The notes beneath the pieces are model-generated. The model was not told where the DNA came from. It saw only the letters and a list, made by a program, of their open reading frames with translations, and did not search any database. From a virus (Duplodnaviria > Heunggongvirae > Uroviricota > Caudoviricetes): a stretch of 32,030 nt of DNA. Of this stretch, positions 584 through 30,396 are shown piece by piece. Both the position numbers and the translations under genes were made by a program. The DNA lies in the IMG/VR virus record IMGVR_UViG_2778261510_000008; one strand, 5' to 3'. How positions within the stretch are numbered: position 1 is the first letter of the stretch; each line of letters begins with the position of its first letter.

Positions 584-1597
584 TTACTCTACTGTGGACA
601 CTATGTGGACACTCTCGGCCTCAGTACCACCTCTTAGCGGATTAAGAGAAATGGCGTCCTGAAGGTACTCTGGCGCAAAATGAGCGTAAACCATAGTTTG
701 CTCAATCCGCGTGTGACCTAGTATCCGTTGTAGCGTGATAATACTTCCTCCATTAATCATGAAATGAGTGGCAAAGCTGTGCCTTAGTGCATGTGTGGCT
801 TGCCCCATTGGCAAATCCGGTTTTATTGCTTTCATTGTTCGTCTGAAGCGAGGGTAATCAGCATCAGGGAATAAAAAACCTCGTTTGTTATCCGCGATCA
901 TTTTGGCAACAGCCTCTGAGATCGGGACGGTGCGTGGTTTGTTTGTTTTCGTTTTAACAAACGTGACGCGGTTATGGATGATATTTTCTGCTTTCAAACG
1001 AGCTGCTTCTCCCCAACGTGCTCCAGTACTCAGGCAAAGAATCGCAATCTTTTTGTTGTCGCCGTCAAGAGCAGCAAGCAGTAAGGCAATTTCTTCCTGC
1101 GTGAGATAGCCTGTGTCTGGTTTTTCCTCCTTAAGCCTTTTTGTCCCTCTGATAGGGTGCTCACCAAAGAATAACTCCGCTTCAATCAGGGCTGTAAACA
1201 TGCCGCTAATACATGTTAAATCACGATTGATACTCGAAGGTTTAATACCCTGACTTCTTCGGGTGGCGCAGTACTGGCTGATAAGCGATTTCGTAATTTG
1301 AAATGCGCATGGGTCATTCGTTATTTTTGTGAAGATTTCAATTTTTCCAAGATTAGATTTCCCATGCTCTTCGTGTTTACCCTTTAAATCCCACCAGATC
1401 TGTGTCAGCTCCGACAGACGTCGCTTGTCTGTTGGTTTTGATAGCCATTCTTTATTGTGGTGGTTGTACAACGTGTATTTCTCGAAAGCGACAGCTTCGC
1501 TTTTCTTATCAAACTTCCTACGGATGCGTTTTCCATTACGTCCAGTAGGGCGGATGTCCACTTCATATCGACCATCATCGAGTTTTTTGATTGCCAT
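584..1597 (-). CDS. int: Tyrosine integrase, P2 Int-like
   Basis: 337-aa ORF next to att core; C-terminal H-x-x-R...Y catalytic region (HALRHSFATH ... TMVYAHF); SD ggaggg upstream of ATG. Confidence 0.9.
   Translation of the reverse strand: MAIKKLDDGRYEVDIRPTGRNGKRIRRKFDKKSEAVAFEKYTLYNHHNKEWLSKPTDKRRLSELTQIWWDLKGKHEEHGKSNLGKIEIFTKITNDPCAFQITKSLISQYCATRRSQGIKPSSINRDLTCISGMFTALIEAELFFGEHPIRGTKRLKEEKPDTGYLTQEEIALLLAALDGDNKKIAILCLSTGARWGEAARLKAENIIHNRVTFVKTKTNKPRTVPISEAVAKMIADNKRGFLFPDADYPRFRRTMKAIKPDLPMGQATHALRHSFATHFMINGGSIITLQRILGHTRIEQTMVYAHFAPEYLQDAISLNPLRGGTEAESVHIVSTVE
593..612. promoter_or_regulatory. Tandem direct repeats TGTGGACAC (593..601 and 604..612), candidate Int arm-type binding sites in the P' arm
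   Basis: Two perfect 9-mers with 11-bp period, inside the 3' end of int and ~90 bp from the att core; related TGTGG(T/A)C pair at 30449..30467 on the other arm. Confidence 0.5.
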
Positions 1598-6540: not shown

Positions 6541-8412
6541 TTACTGTGGTGGAGTCCATATTTTTAATGCGATATTTTTATATGTTTCCCCGCGTGCTGT
6601 AATAGCATTGGCGTTGAATTCAACATATTCTTCAAGATTGATATCGTTATTTGCAGATAAGAATCTTACCAGCTCAGGGTTGTTTTGATAAAAGTTTGCG
6701 CATAATGTCTGGCAAAGAACGTTTTCACCGCTATATACTGTTTTCTTTTCTGAGTACAACTTATCATTTAATGATCTGTTTCTTGAACGGGGAAGCAATA
6801 TCAAACCACCAATCAAGTTTCTCTTCTGCTTGTATTCAGTGTCAGATGAAAAACCGAAGGCTGATGAAGGCATGGTTGTATCATCAATTACTTCGCGAAG
6901 AACATGTTCTATATCAAAAGTTTTCATACCTTTGTCGCGTTGCATATAAACATCAAACCCTACTTTGTTTGTTAGGTTTATCTCGTTTTCAATGTAAGAG
7001 GCGATACGAGCCAGAATATAAAGCATATCTGATCTGGTTTTATTCTCGTACGCCATTTCTGGTATTCTATTAAGTAATGTATAATGCTTGTCCCATTCGT
7101 TTTGGACATAGCTTAACAATGCTGGATAATCTTTCCCTCTAACATCTTTAGCTAAGCTGAATGCAATATCTTTTAAATTGTCATAAGTGTTTGCTTTCTT
7201 CGATACGATTCGACTGGTGAGAATTAGATCAATATACTTAGATATTATTTGGATTTTTTTCTTACGAACATCACGGGTATCTGATAAATCTACAGAAGAT
7301 AGAATTATCATGGTTTGAAAGTTGAATTTTCTAATTCCATTATAGAAAACGTCAGGGTAATCAGTAGTCAGATTTTTCTCAGCATTGGCAATTGTCAAGC
7401 ATAAATTTGCATACTCGGGTATATCTGTTTTTGCAAAGTTATAAAAATCATCGGAAGTAATCAGACCGATATCATGGGTTTTATCTTCAAACCACCGATG
7501 ATAAGAATCATTGATTTTATCAAAATCACCAGGTGCATCGCCTTTATTTTTACCTCTAATAGTGTTTGCCCATTTAGCGCGTAATAAATTCCTGATAAAT
7601 AGAGAATCTCCCTCTGGATCTTTGTCTCTAAGTTTAGACATGGTTTTTACCCATACCTGATGGCATTCTTGACTATCTTCGGGGCTAGTGATTTTTGACA
7701 GAATAAAACCTTTTAATAGTTCAATTGCACCGAGTCTCAAGCCACGGTCATTCATTGTGACAAATACTCTATGCGCTTCTGACTCGCTTGAGACGGATAT
7801 ATCTATTAAAAGAACTTTTTCCATTAAATAATCAATAAAGAAAGAAACTTTTTCTTTTATTGTTGGATCCAAAGCATCCTCAATGGATTTTATTGCCTCA
7901 ATTATTCTTTTATCGCTATCACTAAGATTAGTAATGCTATCTACATCATCTAGTGCGTCTGCAAGACATTTTGCGTTGTCAGTATATTTTGTGAATATTT
8001 CTTTTCTAACTTCGGAAAATTCAATATTGAAATCGCGTTCCCCATAAGAAACACTCCCAATAAAATTTTCTAAAGCCAAAGTGTCTGGAATGTGGTTATC
8101 CTTGATATATCTTTCAAAAAAAACAAGAAGAATAAATATAGACGTGATTCGTTGTTGTCCATCAATCAACGGGCGCTTACCGTTGGTTTCAACCGCCGTA
8201 ATGATAGAACCAAGAAAGTATGGAGGATAAGATGATACATCGCGTCTACCATGAGTAGACTCATAACTCAGTAAGAAAGCATTTTGAATGTCATTTAACA
8301 TTTCAAGAAAATGCCTGCTTTCCCATTTATAATCCCTCTGAAAATATGGTAGTGAGTACTTGCTTTGAAAGCAGGTTTTTAAACTTAGAGTCGATGGGGT
8401 TATATACGCCAT
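6541..8412 (-). CDS. DUF262 (ParB-like, DGQQR motif) + DUF1524-like (His-Me finger) protein; candidate GmrSD-like type IV restriction / anti-phage defence protein in the P2 tin/old hotspot
   Basis: Long ORF 6541..8466; N-terminal motifs YFQRDYKW and LIDGQQRITS; C-terminal FDIEHVL ... NLIGGLILLPRSRNRSLNDK; AT-rich codon usage unlike the phage backbone; ATG at 8412 has AAGGA SD, ATG at 8466 has none. Confidence 0.6.
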   Translation of the reverse strand: MAYITPSTLSLKTCFQSKYSLPYFQRDYKWESRHFLEMLNDIQNAFLLSYESTHGRRDVSSYPPYFLGSIITAVETNGKRPLIDGQQRITSIFILLVFFERYIKDNHIPDTLALENFIGSVSYGERDFNIEFSEVRKEIFTKYTDNAKCLADALDDVDSITNLSDSDKRIIEAIKSIEDALDPTIKEKVSFFIDYLMEKVLLIDISVSSESEAHRVFVTMNDRGLRLGAIELLKGFILSKITSPEDSQECHQVWVKTMSKLRDKDPEGDSLFIRNLLRAKWANTIRGKNKGDAPGDFDKINDSYHRWFEDKTHDIGLITSDDFYNFAKTDIPEYANLCLTIANAEKNLTTDYPDVFYNGIRKFNFQTMIILSSVDLSDTRDVRKKKIQIISKYIDLILTSRIVSKKANTYDNLKDIAFSLAKDVRGKDYPALLSYVQNEWDKHYTLLNRIPEMAYENKTRSDMLYILARIASYIENEINLTNKVGFDVYMQRDKGMKTFDIEHVLREVIDDTTMPSSAFGFSSDTEYKQKRNLIGGLILLPRSRNRSLNDKLYSEKKTVYSGENVLCQTLCANFYQNNPELVRFLSANNDINLEEYVEFNANAITARGETYKNIALKIWTPPQ

Positions 8413-8571
8413 TAATACATCCTTTTGTCTGTAAAGAGCTTCTGTGAGAAGCGCATTATACTGCATTAAGCTGCATTAGTTTTCTACATGTTAATTGATG
8501 TCTACAAAGTAGATTTGACAAGTTTTTGAGGTGGGCGTGCACTTGCATTCAAACCGACCCATGAAGCGGGC

Positions 8572-19900: not shown

Positions 19901-20504
19901 TTCGCGACTGCTGCCGACCGGCTCATCACCGCTTGAAGTCGCTGCTGCAAAAGCCTGTGCGGAAATTGAAAAAACGCCGGTCAGTATTCGTGAGCTGTGG
20001 AACCCGGACACCTGCCCGGCAAATCTGCTGCCGTGGCTGGCGTGGTCATTTTCGGTTGACCGCTGGGATGATAAGTGGCCGGAAGCGACAAAACGCGCTG
20101 TTATCCGCGATGCGTATTTCATTCACTGCCATAAGGGCACTATAGGCGCAATCCGGCGTGTGGTGGAGCCGCTCGGCTATCTGATTGAGGTGAGGGAGTG
20201 GTGGCAACTCAATGAGGAGCCGGGGACGTTCCGTATCGTTGTTGGCGTGCTTGAGCAGGGTATTACCGAGGAAATGTATCAGGAGCTGGAGCGCCTCGTT
20301 GCTGATGCAAAACCGGCAAGCCGCCATCTGACGGGACTGGCTATCAGTTTAAGTACAACCGGCAACATTTTTGCCGGTGCGGGATGCTATCACGGCGACG
20401 CCCTGACAGTTTATCCCTACACCCCGGAGGCCATTATTGTCGGAGGGGATTATTTCCCGGCCTCGGCCATTCATTTAATTGATAACCTGAGAGTAAACGC
20501 ATGA
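19893..20504 (+). CDS. I: Baseplate protein, P2 gpI-like
   Basis: 203-aa ORF between J and H. Confidence 0.8.
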   Translation: MSDSRLLPTGSSPLEVAAAKACAEIEKTPVSIRELWNPDTCPANLLPWLAWSFSVDRWDDKWPEATKRAVIRDAYFIHCHKGTIGAIRRVVEPLGYLIEVREWWQLNEEPGTFRIVVGVLEQGITEEMYQELERLVADAKPASRHLTGLAISLSTTGNIFAGAGCYHGDALTVYPYTPEAIIVGGDYFPASAIHLIDNLRVNA

Positions 20505-21784
20505 CAGTGAAATACTACGCCATTCTGACTAATCAGGGCGCAGCACGGCTGGCTAACGCGACGATGCTTGGCAGTAAGCTGAATCTGACGCAAATGGCCG
20601 TTGGTGATGCGAATGGTGTCTTGCCGACACCAGACCCGGCACAGACAAAACTGATTAACCAGAAACGCATCGCGCCGCTGAATCTTCTGAGTGTTGACCC
20701 GAACAACCAGAGCCAGATTATTGCGGAGCAAATTATCCCTGAGAACGAGGGTGGATTCTGGATCCGTGAGATTGGGCTTTATGATGATGAAGGCGTACTC
20801 ATTGCGGTGGCGAACTGCCCGGAAACGTACAAACCGCAGTTACAGGAAGGCAGCGGTCGTACCCAGACTATCCGCATGATTCTGGTTGTCACGAATACCG
20901 AAGCTATTACGCTGAAAATCGACCCGTCGGTGGTACTGGCGACCCGTAAATACGTGGATGATGAAGTCCTGGAATTAAGGCTGTATGTGGATGACCAGAT
21001 GAGAAACCACATTGCCGCACAGGATCCTCATACCCAGTATGCACAGAAACATAATCCGACATTTACCGGAGAACCAAAAGCGCCGACTCCTGATGCAGGA
21101 AATAACACCACGCGGATTGCGACCACTGCGTTTGTACAGGCTGCTATTACCGCTCTGATTAATGGTGCGCCTGCCACGCTGGACACACTGAAAGAAATTG
21201 CCGCAGCCATTAACAATGACCCGAAATTCAGCACCACCATTAACAATGCGCTGGCAGGTAAACAACCGCTGGACAATACGCTGACTCATTTGAGTGGAAA
21301 GGATGTTGCCGGTCTTCTCGCATACCTTGGTTTGGGAGAAGGTGCTCCAACTATTGGCGTTCCGTTCTTCTGGCCCTCCGCTGCAATGCCAAATACTGTA
21401 ATCGACAGCTGGTCCGGTATGGTGTTTTTGAAGTTCAACGGGGCGAAATTTTCTGCCTCTGATTACCCTGTGCTGGCGAAAGTGTTTCCTTCGCTGGTAT
21501 TACCTGAAGCCCGCGGTGATTTCATTCGTATCTGGGATGACGGGCGAGGTGCAGATGGTGGTCGCGAATTATTAAGCTGGCAGGAAGCTACAAACTTTTC
21601 TCAGTTTGCCGGGAATATAGGCGGAGGTGCGGGACACGCAATTAACTTTCATGATGGCATCGCCGGAAATCAGCCAGGATTTTCACGATTTAATTTCACC
21701 AGTAACTCTGTGGGTGATGGTGTGAATTTTGTTGCTGTCAGACCGCGAAATATTGCATTTAACTTTCTGGTGAGGGCTAAATAA
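20501..21784 (+). CDS. H: Tail fibre protein: P2 gpH-like constant N-terminal part fused to a variable C-terminal part lying inside the invertible segment
   Basis: 427 aa; N-terminus MTVKYYAILTNQGAARLANA... as recalled for P2 H; crossover site lies within the coding sequence at 21315..21340. Confidence 0.85.
   Translation: MTVKYYAILTNQGAARLANATMLGSKLNLTQMAVGDANGVLPTPDPAQTKLINQKRIAPLNLLSVDPNNQSQIIAEQIIPENEGGFWIREIGLYDDEGVLIAVANCPETYKPQLQEGSGRTQTIRMILVVTNTEAITLKIDPSVVLATRKYVDDEVLELRLYVDDQMRNHIAAQDPHTQYAQKHNPTFTGEPKAPTPDAGNNTTRIATTAFVQAAITALINGAPATLDTLKEIAAAINNDPKFSTTINNALAGKQPLDNTLTHLSGKDVAGLLAYLGLGEGAPTIGVPFFWPSAAMPNTVIDSWSGMVFLKFNGAKFSASDYPVLAKVFPSLVLPEARGDFIRIWDDGRGADGGRELLSWQEATNFSQFAGNIGGGAGHAINFHDGIAGNQPGFSRFNFTSNSVGDGVNFVAVRPRNIAFNFLVRAK
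21315..21340. repeat. Left recombination site (gix/cix/hix-like 26 bp) inside the tail fibre gene
   Basis: ttctcgcataccttggtttgggagaa is an imperfect inverted copy of 23061..23086; homology continues into ggtgct on both sides and preserves the reading frame. Confidence 0.65.
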
Positions 21785-22377
21785 TGAAACCTGTTTTTGA
21801 TGAAAATGGGCTGGCTACAGTGCCGGGCGATATGCGTTGTTTTTATTATGATGCTGAAACATCTGAGTATACGGGCTGGTCTGATGAATATATTAATAAT
21901 GGCGTAAGTATGCCCGCCTGTTCCACTGGTATTGACCCGGGCGAAAACATTCCGGGGAAAGTGGCAGTATTTACGGGTAAGGGATGGAGCCATGAAGAAG
22001 ACCATCGCAATGAGACTGTTTACTCAACAGAAAATGGCGCAGCTGTTACAGTGGATTATATCGGTGCCATCAAAAACGGTTATGTCACGCTTTCACCGTT
22101 AACGACATATGATAAATGGGATGGTGAGAAATGGGTGACAGATACTGAGGCACAGCATAACGCCGCAGTAGAAGCAGCAGAAGCACAGCGCCAGTCACTG
22201 ATTGATGCAGCAATGGCTTCCATTAGTCTGATTCAGCTGAAATTACAGGCCGGACGGAAACTGACTCAGGCAGAAACAACCCGACTTAACGCCGTGCTGG
22301 ATTACATTGACGCGGTGACGGCAACAGATACCAGCACCGCGCCGGATGTCATCTGGCCTGAACTGCCGGAGGCGTAG
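21784..22377 (+). CDS. Tail fibre assembly chaperone (gpG/U-like), current orientation
   Basis: 197-aa ORF right after H; C-terminal TSTAPD-x-x-WP motif shared with the convergent ORF. Confidence 0.75.
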
Positions 22378-22777
22378 GCCATTCAATATCGGGTGCTGTT
22401 GAAGTATCAACACGCATCAGCAGCACACGGTATTTCTTCCATTCGGTGAGAGTTGAAGTTTCTTCATCAGTTGCGATATCAGCATCAACAGCATCCTGAC
22501 GCCAGGATATTTCACTGTCAGCTTTTTCCCGTAATTGGGATTTTTTAACTTCAGCAATAGCTATTAATTCCTTTTTGGTCGGCTGAGGAATATCTATCAG
22601 TGCTGGTTTTCCATTCAGTGTTCCAATCTGTTTTCCTGGTGGAATATCCATAAATAACTTTTTATGTTCTTCCTCACTGACTATTACACCATCATCAGGC
22701 CACAGACCTGATGCCTCAAATTTTTCTTTCTCCGATATGGGGAAAAAGCCATTTGCTTTAGCGCTCCATACGTACAT
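22349..22777 (-). CDS. Alternative tail fibre assembly chaperone (U'-like), convergent
   Basis: 142-aa ORF ending in [15 protein letters not shown], like the + strand chaperone; sits inside the invertible segment. Confidence 0.7.
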
Positions 22778-22778
22778 A

Positions 22779-23086
22779 TCAATACCCCACCGCTATAATG
22801 TCCACATTAAATCCCCCGGGACCTGCCTGCCAGATGCTGGCCCCTGTTAATGATTTTGTTTGATGAACAACCGCCACATTTGCTGGCGATAGTGTTTCAG
22901 TTGTTACAGTACCGATATCATTCCAGTTAATTGAGATGGAATAGTTCGTTGTTGTAAACGACCGGGGGAAAGTTATGTGTCTTGCATTGGTGCCAACAGG
23001 AAATCCAAGATAAACACGCTGAATTATCATTCCTCCAGGTAACATAACCCAGTTAGCACCTTCTCCAAAACCAACGTTTATGAAAA
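22779..23086 (-). CDS. Silent alternative tail fibre C-terminal cassette (Sv'-like); expressed only after inversion fuses it to the H constant part
   Basis: Reading frame open from the right crossover site; encodes [14 protein letters not shown]... whose first residues parallel GLGEGA in H; no own start or promoter. Confidence 0.6.
23061..23086. repeat. Right recombination site (gix/cix/hix-like 26 bp)
   Basis: ttctccaaaaccaacgtttatgaaaa; its reverse complement ttttcataaacgttggttttggagaa aligns with 21315..21340. Confidence 0.65.
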
Positions 23087-23140
23087 TGCAGAAATAACGA
23101 GCAAATGGCATCATTCCTGCTTTTGTCAGAGGGATCCACT

Positions 23141-23734
23141 ATGCTTATTGGCTATGTACGCGTGTCAACAAATGACCAGAACACGGAATTGCAGCGTAAC
23201 GCGCTGGAGTGCGCGGGATGTGAGCGGATTTTTGAGGACAAAATCAGCGGCACGAAGTCCGACAGGCCGGGACTGAAAAAACTGCTCAGGACATTATCGG
23301 AGGGGGATACACTGGTAGTCTGGAAGCTGGACCGGCTGGGGCGTAGTATGCGGCATCTGGTCATTCTGGTTGAGGAGTTGCGCGAACGCGGCATTAATTT
23401 TCGCAGCCTGACGGATGCTATTGATACCAGCACGCCGATGGGGCGTTTTTTCTTTCATGTGATGGGTGCCCTGGCTGAAATGGAACGAGAACTCATTGTC
23501 GAGCGGACTCGGGCCGGGCTGGAAGCGGCCAGAGCCAAAGGTCGTATTGGTGGCAGACGACCGAAACTCACCGCGAGTGAGTGGGAGCAGGCCGGGCGTT
23601 TGCTGGCTGCAGGGGAGTCACGTCAACGCGTGGCACTGATTTTTGATATTGGTCTGTCCACGCTCTATAAAAAATTTCCCTCATCAGCGACAAAGAATAA
23701 ATTGTGTCATCCCTTAGCCAACCGGGACAAATAG
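23141..23734 (+). CDS. Serine DNA invertase, Gin/Cin/Hin/Pin family
   Basis: 197 aa from ATG at 23141; N-terminal catalytic motif GYVRVSTNDQ, resolvase fold residues, C-terminal HTH; next to the inverted-repeat sites. Confidence 0.85.
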   Translation: MLIGYVRVSTNDQNTELQRNALECAGCERIFEDKISGTKSDRPGLKKLLRTLSEGDTLVVWKLDRLGRSMRHLVILVEELRERGINFRSLTDAIDTSTPMGRFFFHVMGALAEMERELIVERTRAGLEAARAKGRIGGRRPKLTASEWEQAGRLLAAGESRQRVALIFDIGLSTLYKKFPSSATKNKLCHPLANRDK

Positions 23735-23793
23735 CCTGACATCTCCGGCACAACTGAAAATATCACTCACCCATTAACCACGGAGTTAAACGG

Positions 23794-24984
23794 ATGAGTG
23801 ACTATCATCACGGCGTGCAGGTGCTGGAGATTAACGACGGCACCCGCGTCATTTCCACCGTATCCACCGCCATTGTCGGCATGGTCTGCACGGCCAGCGA
23901 TGCGGATGCGGAAATCTTCCCCCTCAATAAACCGGTGCTGATTACCAATGTGCAGAGCGCAATTGCAAAGGCCGGTAAAAAAGGCACGCTGGCGGCGTCG
24001 TTGCAGGCCATCGCTGACCAGTCAAAACCGGTCACCGTAGTCGTGCGTGTGGAAGACGGCACCGGCGACGACGAAGAAACGAAACTCGCGCAGACTGTTT
24101 CCAATATCATCGGTACCACCGACGAAAACGGTCAGTACACCGGACTGAAAGCCCTGCTGGCGGCGGAGTCGGTAACCGGTGTTAAACCGCGTATTCTCGG
24201 TGTGCCGGGACTGGACACCAAAGAGGTGGCTGTTGCACTGGCATCAGTCTGTCAGAAGCTGCGCGCTTTCGGGTATATCAGCGCATGGGGCTGTAAAACC
24301 ATTTCCGAGGTGAAAGCCTACCGCCAGAATTTCAGCCAGCGTGAGCTGATGGTCATCTGGCCGGATTTCCTCGCATGGGATACGGTCACCAGTACCACCT
24401 CCACCGCGTATGCCACCGCCCGTGCGCTGGGTCTGCGCGCTAAAATCGACCAGGAGCAGGGCTGGCATAAAACGCTGTCCAACGTCGGGGTGAACGGTGT
24501 TACCGGCATCAGCGCATCTGTATTCTGGGATTTGCAGGAGTCCGGCACCGATGCTGACCTGCTGAACGAGGCAGGCGTCACAACGCTGATTCGCCGCGAC
24601 GGTTTCCGCTTCTGGGGTAACCGTACCTGCTCTGATGACCCGCTGTTCCTCTTTGAAAACTACACCCGCACCGCGCAGGTGCTGGCCGACACGATGGCTG
24701 AGGCGCACATGTGGGCGGTGGACAAGCCCATCACCGCAACGCTGATTCGCGACATCGTTGACGGCATCAATGCCAAATTCCGTGAGCTGAAAACAAATGG
24801 CTATATCGTGGATGCGACCTGCTGGTTCAGCGAAGAATCCAACGATGCGGAAACCCTCAAGGCCGGAAAACTGTATATCGACTACGACTATACCCCGGTG
24901 CCTCCTCTTGAAAACCTGACCCTGCGCCAGCGTATTACCGATAAATACCTGGCGAATCTGGTCACCTCGGTTAACAGCAATTAA
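23794..24984 (+). CDS. FI: Tail sheath protein, P2 gpFI-like
   Basis: 396-aa ORF, size and order. Confidence 0.9.
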   Translation: MSDYHHGVQVLEINDGTRVISTVSTAIVGMVCTASDADAEIFPLNKPVLITNVQSAIAKAGKKGTLAASLQAIADQSKPVTVVVRVEDGTGDDEETKLAQTVSNIIGTTDENGQYTGLKALLAAESVTGVKPRILGVPGLDTKEVAVALASVCQKLRAFGYISAWGCKTISEVKAYRQNFSQRELMVIWPDFLAWDTVTSTTSTAYATARALGLRAKIDQEQGWHKTLSNVGVNGVTGISASVFWDLQESGTDADLLNEAGVTTLIRRDGFRFWGNRTCSDDPLFLFENYTRTAQVLADTMAEAHMWAVDKPITATLIRDIVDGINAKFRELKTNGYIVDATCWFSEESNDAETLKAGKLYIDYDYTPVPPLENLTLRQRITDKYLANLVTSVNSN

Positions 24985-30096: not shown

Positions 30097-30177
30097 TGTT
30101 TTTATTTTATCTGTTTGTTTTATAAGGATAAATTAACTAAAATGGCACCATCAACAAAACCGGAAGAGGTGCTCGCG

Positions 30178-30396
30178 ATGTTTCATTGTCCTTTATGCCA
30201 GCATGCCGCACATGCGCGTACAAGCCGCTATATCACTGACACGACAAAAGAGCGTTATCACCAGTGTCAGAACGTGAATTGCAGCGCCACGTTCATCACT
30301 TATGAGTCGGTACAGCGATACATCGTGAAGCCGGGAGAAGTCCACGCCGTAAGACCGCACCCGTTGCCGTCAGGGCAGCAAATTATGTGGATGTAA
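30178..30396 (+). CDS. ogr: Late gene transcription activator Ogr (zinc finger)
   Basis: 72 aa from ATG at 30178 (MFHCPLCQH...); cysteine pairs CPLC and CQNVNC; last phage gene before attR. Confidence 0.85.
   Translation: MFHCPLCQHAAHARTSRYITDTTKERYHQCQNVNCSATFITYESVQRYIVKPGEVHAVRPHPLPSGQQIMWM

Follow-up and report, generated by a model that had tools for sequence, protein, structure and literature searches.

The minus-strand reading frame at 22779-23114 and the neighbouring tail fibre gene H are very probably the silent and the active halves of a Pin/Gin-type invertible tail-fibre segment in a P2-like prophage. Two crossover sites enclose two fibre tips, each with its own assembly gene, a serine invertase gene lies beside them, inversion in silico leaves the fibre gene open, and complete E. 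coli genomes carry the same locus in both orientations. Nowhere does the sequence contradict this explanation.

The prophage and its fibre genes

The window, by which we mean the whole 32,030-nt stretch of DNA that was analysed, holds, on its gene content, a complete P2-like (Peduovirus-type) E. coli prophage. Gene names were taken from the map of open reading frames (ORFs) and from the annotations of a closely related prophage in E. coli E2, whose fibre-invertase region is 98.6% identical to that of the window. The ORF map gives the P2 order V W J I H G ... FI FII E T U D ogr around the fibre, while integrase, C and cox sit at the prophage end opposite the fibre-to-ogr block (ORF map and E2 annotation). 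On the same map the integrase gene (584-1597, minus strand) marks the left prophage boundary and ogr (30115-30396, with an Ogr_Delta Pfam match) the right one, and the host gene trhP lies at the right end of the window. Away from the fibre, in the P2 hotspot flanked by replication gene A and portal gene Q, a minus-strand ORF of 641 aa (6541-8466) carries GmrSD_N and GmrSD_C domains and also matches the PADLOC HEC-06/Orf5 models. Its domain content points to a type IV restriction-like defence gene, a putative moron; the E2 prophage has a frameshifted reverse transcriptase in its place.

The fibre locus sits between baseplate gene I and sheath gene FI. Gene H (20501-21784, plus strand, 427 aa) is made up of a constant part, residues 1-276 (20501-21328), with the Pfam PF12571 Phage_tail_fib N-terminal domain (E 2.5e-62), and an expressed variable tip, Hv, residues 277-427 (21329-21784, plus strand, 151 aa). 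The start of the fibre-assembly gene G (21784-22377, plus strand, 197 aa; Pfam Caudo_TAP, E 3.3e-28), cognate to Hv, overlaps the H stop codon (TAATG). Opposed to this pair on the minus strand are the silent variable tip, Hv' (22779-23072, 97 aa plus stop), which has a Pfam PF21882 gp53-like C-terminal domain, and its cognate silent fibre-assembly gene tfa' (22349-22777, 142 aa; Caudo_TAP, E 1e-33), whose product also matches Mu U (PDB 5yvq_B, E 1.2e-6). Hv' is part of the 111-aa minus-strand ORF at 22779-23114, which ends ...IIAVGY* and opens with a fixed leader of 14 codons (23073-23114). Both tip cassettes and both fibre-assembly genes are intact ORFs, and each tip is followed by its own Caudo_TAP gene, the two pairs being convergent. 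The 3' ends of G and tfa' overlap by 29 nt (22349-22377), and their C-termini hardly differ from those of TfaE and TfaP in e14, where the two genes overlap in like manner; the conserved overlap may be a recombination joint for cassette shuffling.

A search for sigma-70-like promoters on either strand of 21000-23900 returned none, with 3.7 expected in shuffles, which agrees with the description of the alternative cassette as silent in the initial annotation of this DNA. Read from the sequence, an AGGA motif stands 0-3 nt upstream of the two ATGs of the 111-aa ORF, a poor spacing. The sequence fits a cassette without a promoter of its own, which would depend on the late operon after inversion.

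Crossover sites and inversion in silico

Two 26-bp crossover sites, recognised by inverted repeat and by site pattern, bound the invertible segment. On the plus strand the left site (21315-21340) reads TTCTCGCATACC TT GGTTTGGGAGAA, its central TT at 21327-21328 falling within the Leu276 codon of H, and the right site (23061-23086) reads TTCTCCAAAACC AA CGTTTATGAAAA, with the central AA at 23073-23074. The 1744 bp between them (21329-23072) contain the two variable tips, each with its fibre-assembly gene. The longest inverted repeat in 20500-23800 measures 32 nt at 81% complementarity, with arms at 21315-21346 and 23055-23086, and a degenerate Din-type site pattern matched the 32-kb window exactly twice, at the two crossover sites, and 100 shuffles not once. 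The same pattern revealed no further crossover site anywhere in the 32-kb window, such as an EPEC-like multi-cassette shufflon would have. The sites are inverted relative to each other, each with 12-bp imperfect dyad half-sites, resembling gix, around a 2-bp core that is TT at both sites when read from the outer to the inner arm. Serine invertases make a 2-nt staggered cut followed by a 180-degree rotation and need the same core at both sites. The outer arms differ between the two sites, and from the central TT onward 19 of 20 nt agree.

We inverted the segment in silico by taking the reverse complement of 21329-23072. The initial annotation had proposed that the cassette at 22779-23114 would fuse in frame to H on inversion, a proposal that a frameshift or a stop codon at the junction would contradict; the inverted sequence, once built and translated, has neither. 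H stays in frame as a 373-aa protein, H', ending ...IIAVGY*, in which residues 277-373 are Hv' in place of residues 277-427 of H. A natural counterpart exists: H' differs from RefSeq WP_173002280.1 (373 aa, from E. coli NMBU-W12E19, where the segment is flipped) by the single change D165E. After inversion tfa' begins 1 nt past the H' stop (TGA T ATG), so that H' and tfa' would be translationally coupled as H and G are now. The lengths originally put at about 150 and about 90 residues for the two tips are 151 and 97 aa, and the peptides quoted for the two sites are present in H and in the minus-strand ORF.

One detail of that proposal has to be revised. The translation of H at residues 271-285 reads ...LLAYLGLGEGAPTIG... 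/ ...GLLAYLGLGEGAPTI..., and the GEGA codons are indeed shared by both reading frames, as had been claimed, but they do not span the crossover. They are formed by the inner half-site and a 6-nt extension of it and travel with the segment. Comparison with flipped records shows that a G/T difference in the inner arm (GGTTTG vs GGTTTT) accompanies the segment, the outer arms remaining fixed, so that exchange is confined to TTGGTTT (21327-21333), the central TT included. Judged from this comparison, the exchange point lies within 21327-21333, in the Leu276 codon, 1-2 codons upstream of GEGA.

It follows that the 111-aa ORF is not a unit. Only 22779-23072 of it lies inside the segment. The leader, on the minus strand, overlies the outer half-site and the stretch that precedes the invertase gene, and inversion in silico fuses it to Hv (frame 2). 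Since the leader lies outside the segment and is joined to the other tip after inversion, the first codons of the ORF are a mechanical extension rather than part of the cassette.

The invertase

The gene that adjoins the segment, just beyond the right site (23141-23734, plus strand, 197 aa), encodes a serine DNA invertase that by its sequence belongs to the Hin/Gin/Cin/Pin group. The product gives 178.8 bits against Pfam Resolvase, carries a C-terminal HTH_7 domain and retains the catalytic Ser9, in MLIGYVRVSTNDQ. It is identical to Mu Gin (PDB 3uj3) at 145 of 182 residues (80%) and to e14 PinE at 86.7%. Codon-level identity of 23141-23734 to pinE (L007 5686-6240) drops from 0.61-0.84 to 0.23-0.36 of conserved residues after codon 120, which points to a recombination breakpoint within the gene.

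Inversion by Gin, Hin and Cin requires a Fis-dependent enhancer that lies within the gene for the enzyme itself, in its 5' part. Aligned with Mu, the DNA from the right crossover site to nucleotide 280 of the invertase gene has a mean column identity of 82%, with the conservation at the coding level, and coding constraints explain the resemblance to the 5' region of Mu gin. Codons 1-40 of the invertase, taken in 20-codon bins, have no excess of synonymous-site conservation over the rest of the gene, and matches to the Fis motif, which is highly degenerate, are not enriched in the 32-kb window (51, against 69 expected in shuffles). By analogy with its relatives, inversion here presumably needs Fis and an enhancer.

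Both orientations occur in E. coli

Megablast searches with the region as it stands in the window and with the same region inverted in silico each found five complete E. coli genomes that cover 100% of the query in one piece; the full-length matches in both orientations are 96.7-98.6% identical. We then compared records in opposite states base by base, in three pieces anchored on the crossover sites and with complete genomes only; the flanks are nearly identical, with 0-14 mismatches per about 2.3 kb. E2, which has the orientation of the window, and NMBU-W12E19, which is flipped, carry segments of 1744 bp that are perfect reverse complements of each other (0 mismatches), with 2 mismatches in one flank and 14 in the other; the segment of the window differs from either at 10 of its 1744 positions. 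A second pair, E. coli W and strain B-766, carries a related prophage with a different silent tip, and here too a segment of 1837 bp is an exact reverse complement without mismatch, with 0 and 7 mismatches in the flanks. The left flank is identical in flipped-state records, and the constant part of H stays put in both orientations.

Short inverted repeats can mislead assemblers, and the two database orientations could in principle come from assembly errors, or from RecA-dependent recombination between short repeats, rather than from site-specific inversion. We find this scarcely credible. Every record in the comparison is a complete genome, and the breakpoints all map to a single 7-nt interval in the middle of a Din-type site that adjoins a gene for a Gin/Pin homologue. 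The identity shared from the central TT (19 of 20 nt) is too short, as identities of about 20 nt generally are, for efficient RecA exchange. Inversion verified by PCR has also been published for P2-like prophages (PMC4272514). Site-specific inversion is the reading we retain, and the zero divergence inside the segment between opposite states implies that the flips are recent.

How common each state is was gauged with junction-specific queries of 300 nt against 5426 complete E. coli genomes. The silent-state junction, with the tip beside the invertase, occurs in 83 of them, and the expressed-state junction, which joins this tip to this H shaft, in 17, a lower bound since the query demands this shaft and the same tip is also found on other shafts. 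Overall, this tip is present in about 2% of the complete E. coli genomes.

These figures bear on whether the locus still switches. It could be a frozen relic, with the invertible architecture preserved and no switching now, for instance through an unexpressed invertase or poor sites, and with the cassette permanently silent. The excess of silent over expressed junctions (83 to 17) would be in line with that, though the second query also requires this shaft, as would imperfect sites with unlike outer arms and a 32-nt repeat only 81% complementary, and the want of any sigma-70-like promoter upstream of the invertase gene. Imperfect half-sites are, however, the normal condition of gix and of the e14 sites. 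The invertase ORF is intact, with Ser9 in place and 80-87% identity to the active Gin and PinE, neither cassette nor chaperone gene has decayed, and prophages with the same sites exist in both states with no divergence within the segment. A relic is therefore very unlikely, and we infer that inversion is active in this strain.

Two fibre proteins (P0026 and P0029) carry the same 97-aa tip at the same YLGFGEGA junction on shafts whose N-termini are unrelated to P2 H, which implies that the crossover site also serves as a module boundary for horizontal tip exchange. E. coli E308 (NZ_CP030281.1) has two related P2-like prophages with the cassette pair, one in each orientation (hits H2 and H32); by analogy with PinQ, reported to act on e14 in trans, one invertase could presumably act on both loci. 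RefSeq calls H in records with the orientation of the window two pseudogene pieces ('missing C-terminus' and 'missing N-terminus'), as at L001 3002-4285 (E2) and L003 1502-2785 (W), equivalent to 20501-21784 here, and lists the silent tip as a stand-alone 'gp53-like domain-containing protein'. The H ORF of E2 is intact at 427 aa despite its annotation, and these labels are an artefact of the orientation of the segment.

Two tips of different fold

That the tips differ in sequence as well as in length had been claimed at the outset and holds: beyond the junction blastp detects no similarity between Hv and Hv'. Hv' matches Pfam PF21882 Gp53-like_C over profile positions 2-84 of 84, at 27.6-28.2 bits against a cut-off of 24.9. 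Its AlphaFold2 model, a monomer built on a 14-sequence alignment, is an all-beta domain with a mean pLDDT of 83, and among PDB structures it is most like the foot of R1/R2 pyocin fibres (6cxb, 6cl5, 6ct8) and AP22 gp53 (4mtm), at TM 0.67-0.70, with 6cxb, 6cl5 and 4mtm at 0.68-0.70. On profile and predicted model, then, the silent tip is a gp53-like domain of the R-pyocin-foot type.

The fold is common, yet the sequence family of Hv' is narrow, as the searches for relatives make plain. An indexed protein search returned E. coli proteins only, with identities to the tip of 92% or more in nearly every case, and an exhaustive HMMER search of 1.84 billion representatives yielded 23 proteins, of which the more distant keep the junction motif YLG[FYL].[ES]G. 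With tblastn no match at E<=1e-3 was obtained among 50,697 phage records, and there is consequently no characterised phage from which its receptor might be deduced.

Hv is of another kind. Phages 500465-2, mEp043 and mEp213 have fibre tips that match it at 93-98% identity, while HK97 Stf and the variable part of e14 stfE do so at about 41%. Hv contains weak T4 gp37-like collar and C-terminal NIAFN motifs (E 0.0066), and the Pfam Collar profile stays below its cut-off. The two tips belong to different fold classes and each has a private chaperone, which makes it likely that they bind different receptors.

Could the 111-aa ORF act in the lysogen?

The ORF at 22779-23114 might also be expressed as it stands and serve the lysogen, for instance by keeping other phages from adsorbing, which would be compatible with inversion. 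The suggestion comes from e14, where StfE2 consists of the stfE leader MPFACYFFIFINVG joined by inversion to the gp53-like StfP tip (PMC12529663). According to this 2025 paper, StfE2 is recombinase-activated and reduces adsorption of phage T2 when it is produced (PMC12529663). The ORF in the window has the same build, a homologous leader followed by a gp53-like tip, and RefSeq annotates it as a protein in its own right. Against its expression stand the absence of any promoter-like site on either strand of 21000-23900 and the bad spacing of AGGA from the two ATGs. The outer half-site and the upstream region of the invertase gene account for the conservation of the leader, the tip is just 24% identical to StfP, and the evidence for StfE2 comes mostly from plasmid expression and docking. 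On balance we consider a present role of the ORF in the lysogen unlikely. Distinctly unlikely is the fuller version by analogy with e14, in which inversion would toggle the phage's host range and also, through the 111-aa ORF, a defence that protects the host by masking receptors, and the cassette would then not be silent. The reading that we favour is of a silent fibre half that awaits inversion.

Discussion

Our working model is as follows. The invertase (23141-23734) would pair the two 26-bp sites and cut each at its central dinucleotide, the TT of the Leu276 codon of H matching the minus-strand TT at 23073-23074. The enzyme would then rotate and rejoin the ends, with the result that 21329-23072 flips. 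In the present orientation the late operon would read H(1-276) with the 151-aa Hv, then G; after inversion it would read H(1-276) with the 97-aa Hv' and its gp53/R-pyocin-type foot, then tfa'. Each tip would travel with its own assembly chaperone, and because the two move together one lysogen would give virions with two receptor-binding tips. Two virion types from one lysogen would amount to bet-hedging on host range.

There is ample precedent. In the P2-like prophages of EPEC E2348/69, likened to the window on phage type and kind of locus, inversion has been demonstrated by sequencing (paired-end mapping) and by PCR, and clonal cultures contained the two variants side by side (Goldberg et al. 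2014, PMC4272514). At one EPEC locus there are three repeats and four variants (PMC4272514), whereas the window has two sites only. A 2024 survey likewise reports that this P2 hotspot has invertases, with adjacent genes inverted.

The closest match in layout is the e14 P segment of K-12, stfP-tfaP-tfaE-stfE-pinE, which has the gene order and orientation logic of the window. Its repeat core, TTGGTTTGGGAGAAGG (PMC12529663), is identical to 21327-21342. The leader and right outer flank of the window are homologous to the e14 sequence beside pinE, where stfE begins MPFACYFFIFINVG. G is 63% identical to TfaE, and each locus has one gp53-like tip. They differ in that e14 is a defective lambdoid element, whereas the window holds an entire P2-like myovirus prophage whose fibre shaft is of the P2 H type. 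The gp53-like tip aligns with that of StfP at 24% identity and tfa' with TfaP at 33%, the segment measures 1744 bp against 1797 bp in e14, and in K-12 it lies in the opposite orientation.

The Mu G segment (S/U, S'/U' and gin, in the order S-U-U'-S'-gin) also shares the layout. In both, the constant fibre N-terminus lies outside, two variable C-termini with their chaperone genes lie opposed inside, and the invertase gene follows directly beyond the right site. The G segment is larger, at about 3 kb against 1744 bp, and so are its tips. The gix half-sites, TTATCCAAAACC and TTCCTGTAAACC, differ from those of the window, as does the central dinucleotide (TC/GA in Mu, TT/AA here), and the Mu fibre shaft is unrelated to the H shaft. 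As for the foot of R-pyocins and AP22 gp53 (6cxb, 6cl5, 6ct8, 4mtm), identity to the monomer model of Hv' is 21-24% at the TM scores of 0.67-0.70, and in those particles the domain likewise forms the C-terminal end of a contractile-tail fibre. Taken together, these comparisons make the locus an unremarkable and intact case of the long-known class of invertase-switched tail fibres that includes Mu G, P1 C, e14 P and the P2-like prophages, and the only new element in it is an uncharacterised gp53-like silent tip.

The finding has little consequence beyond annotation, and its value is that of a clean and intact example of host-range switching driven by an invertase. Wider interest would arise only if the ORF of leader plus tip blocks adsorption in the manner of e14 StfE2. 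For annotation the consequence is direct, as pipelines mislabel the locus, turning an intact H into two pseudogene pieces and the silent tip into a stand-alone gene. Host-range prediction for such prophages must weigh both tips, including Hv', which is without counterpart among the 50,697 deposited phage genomes.
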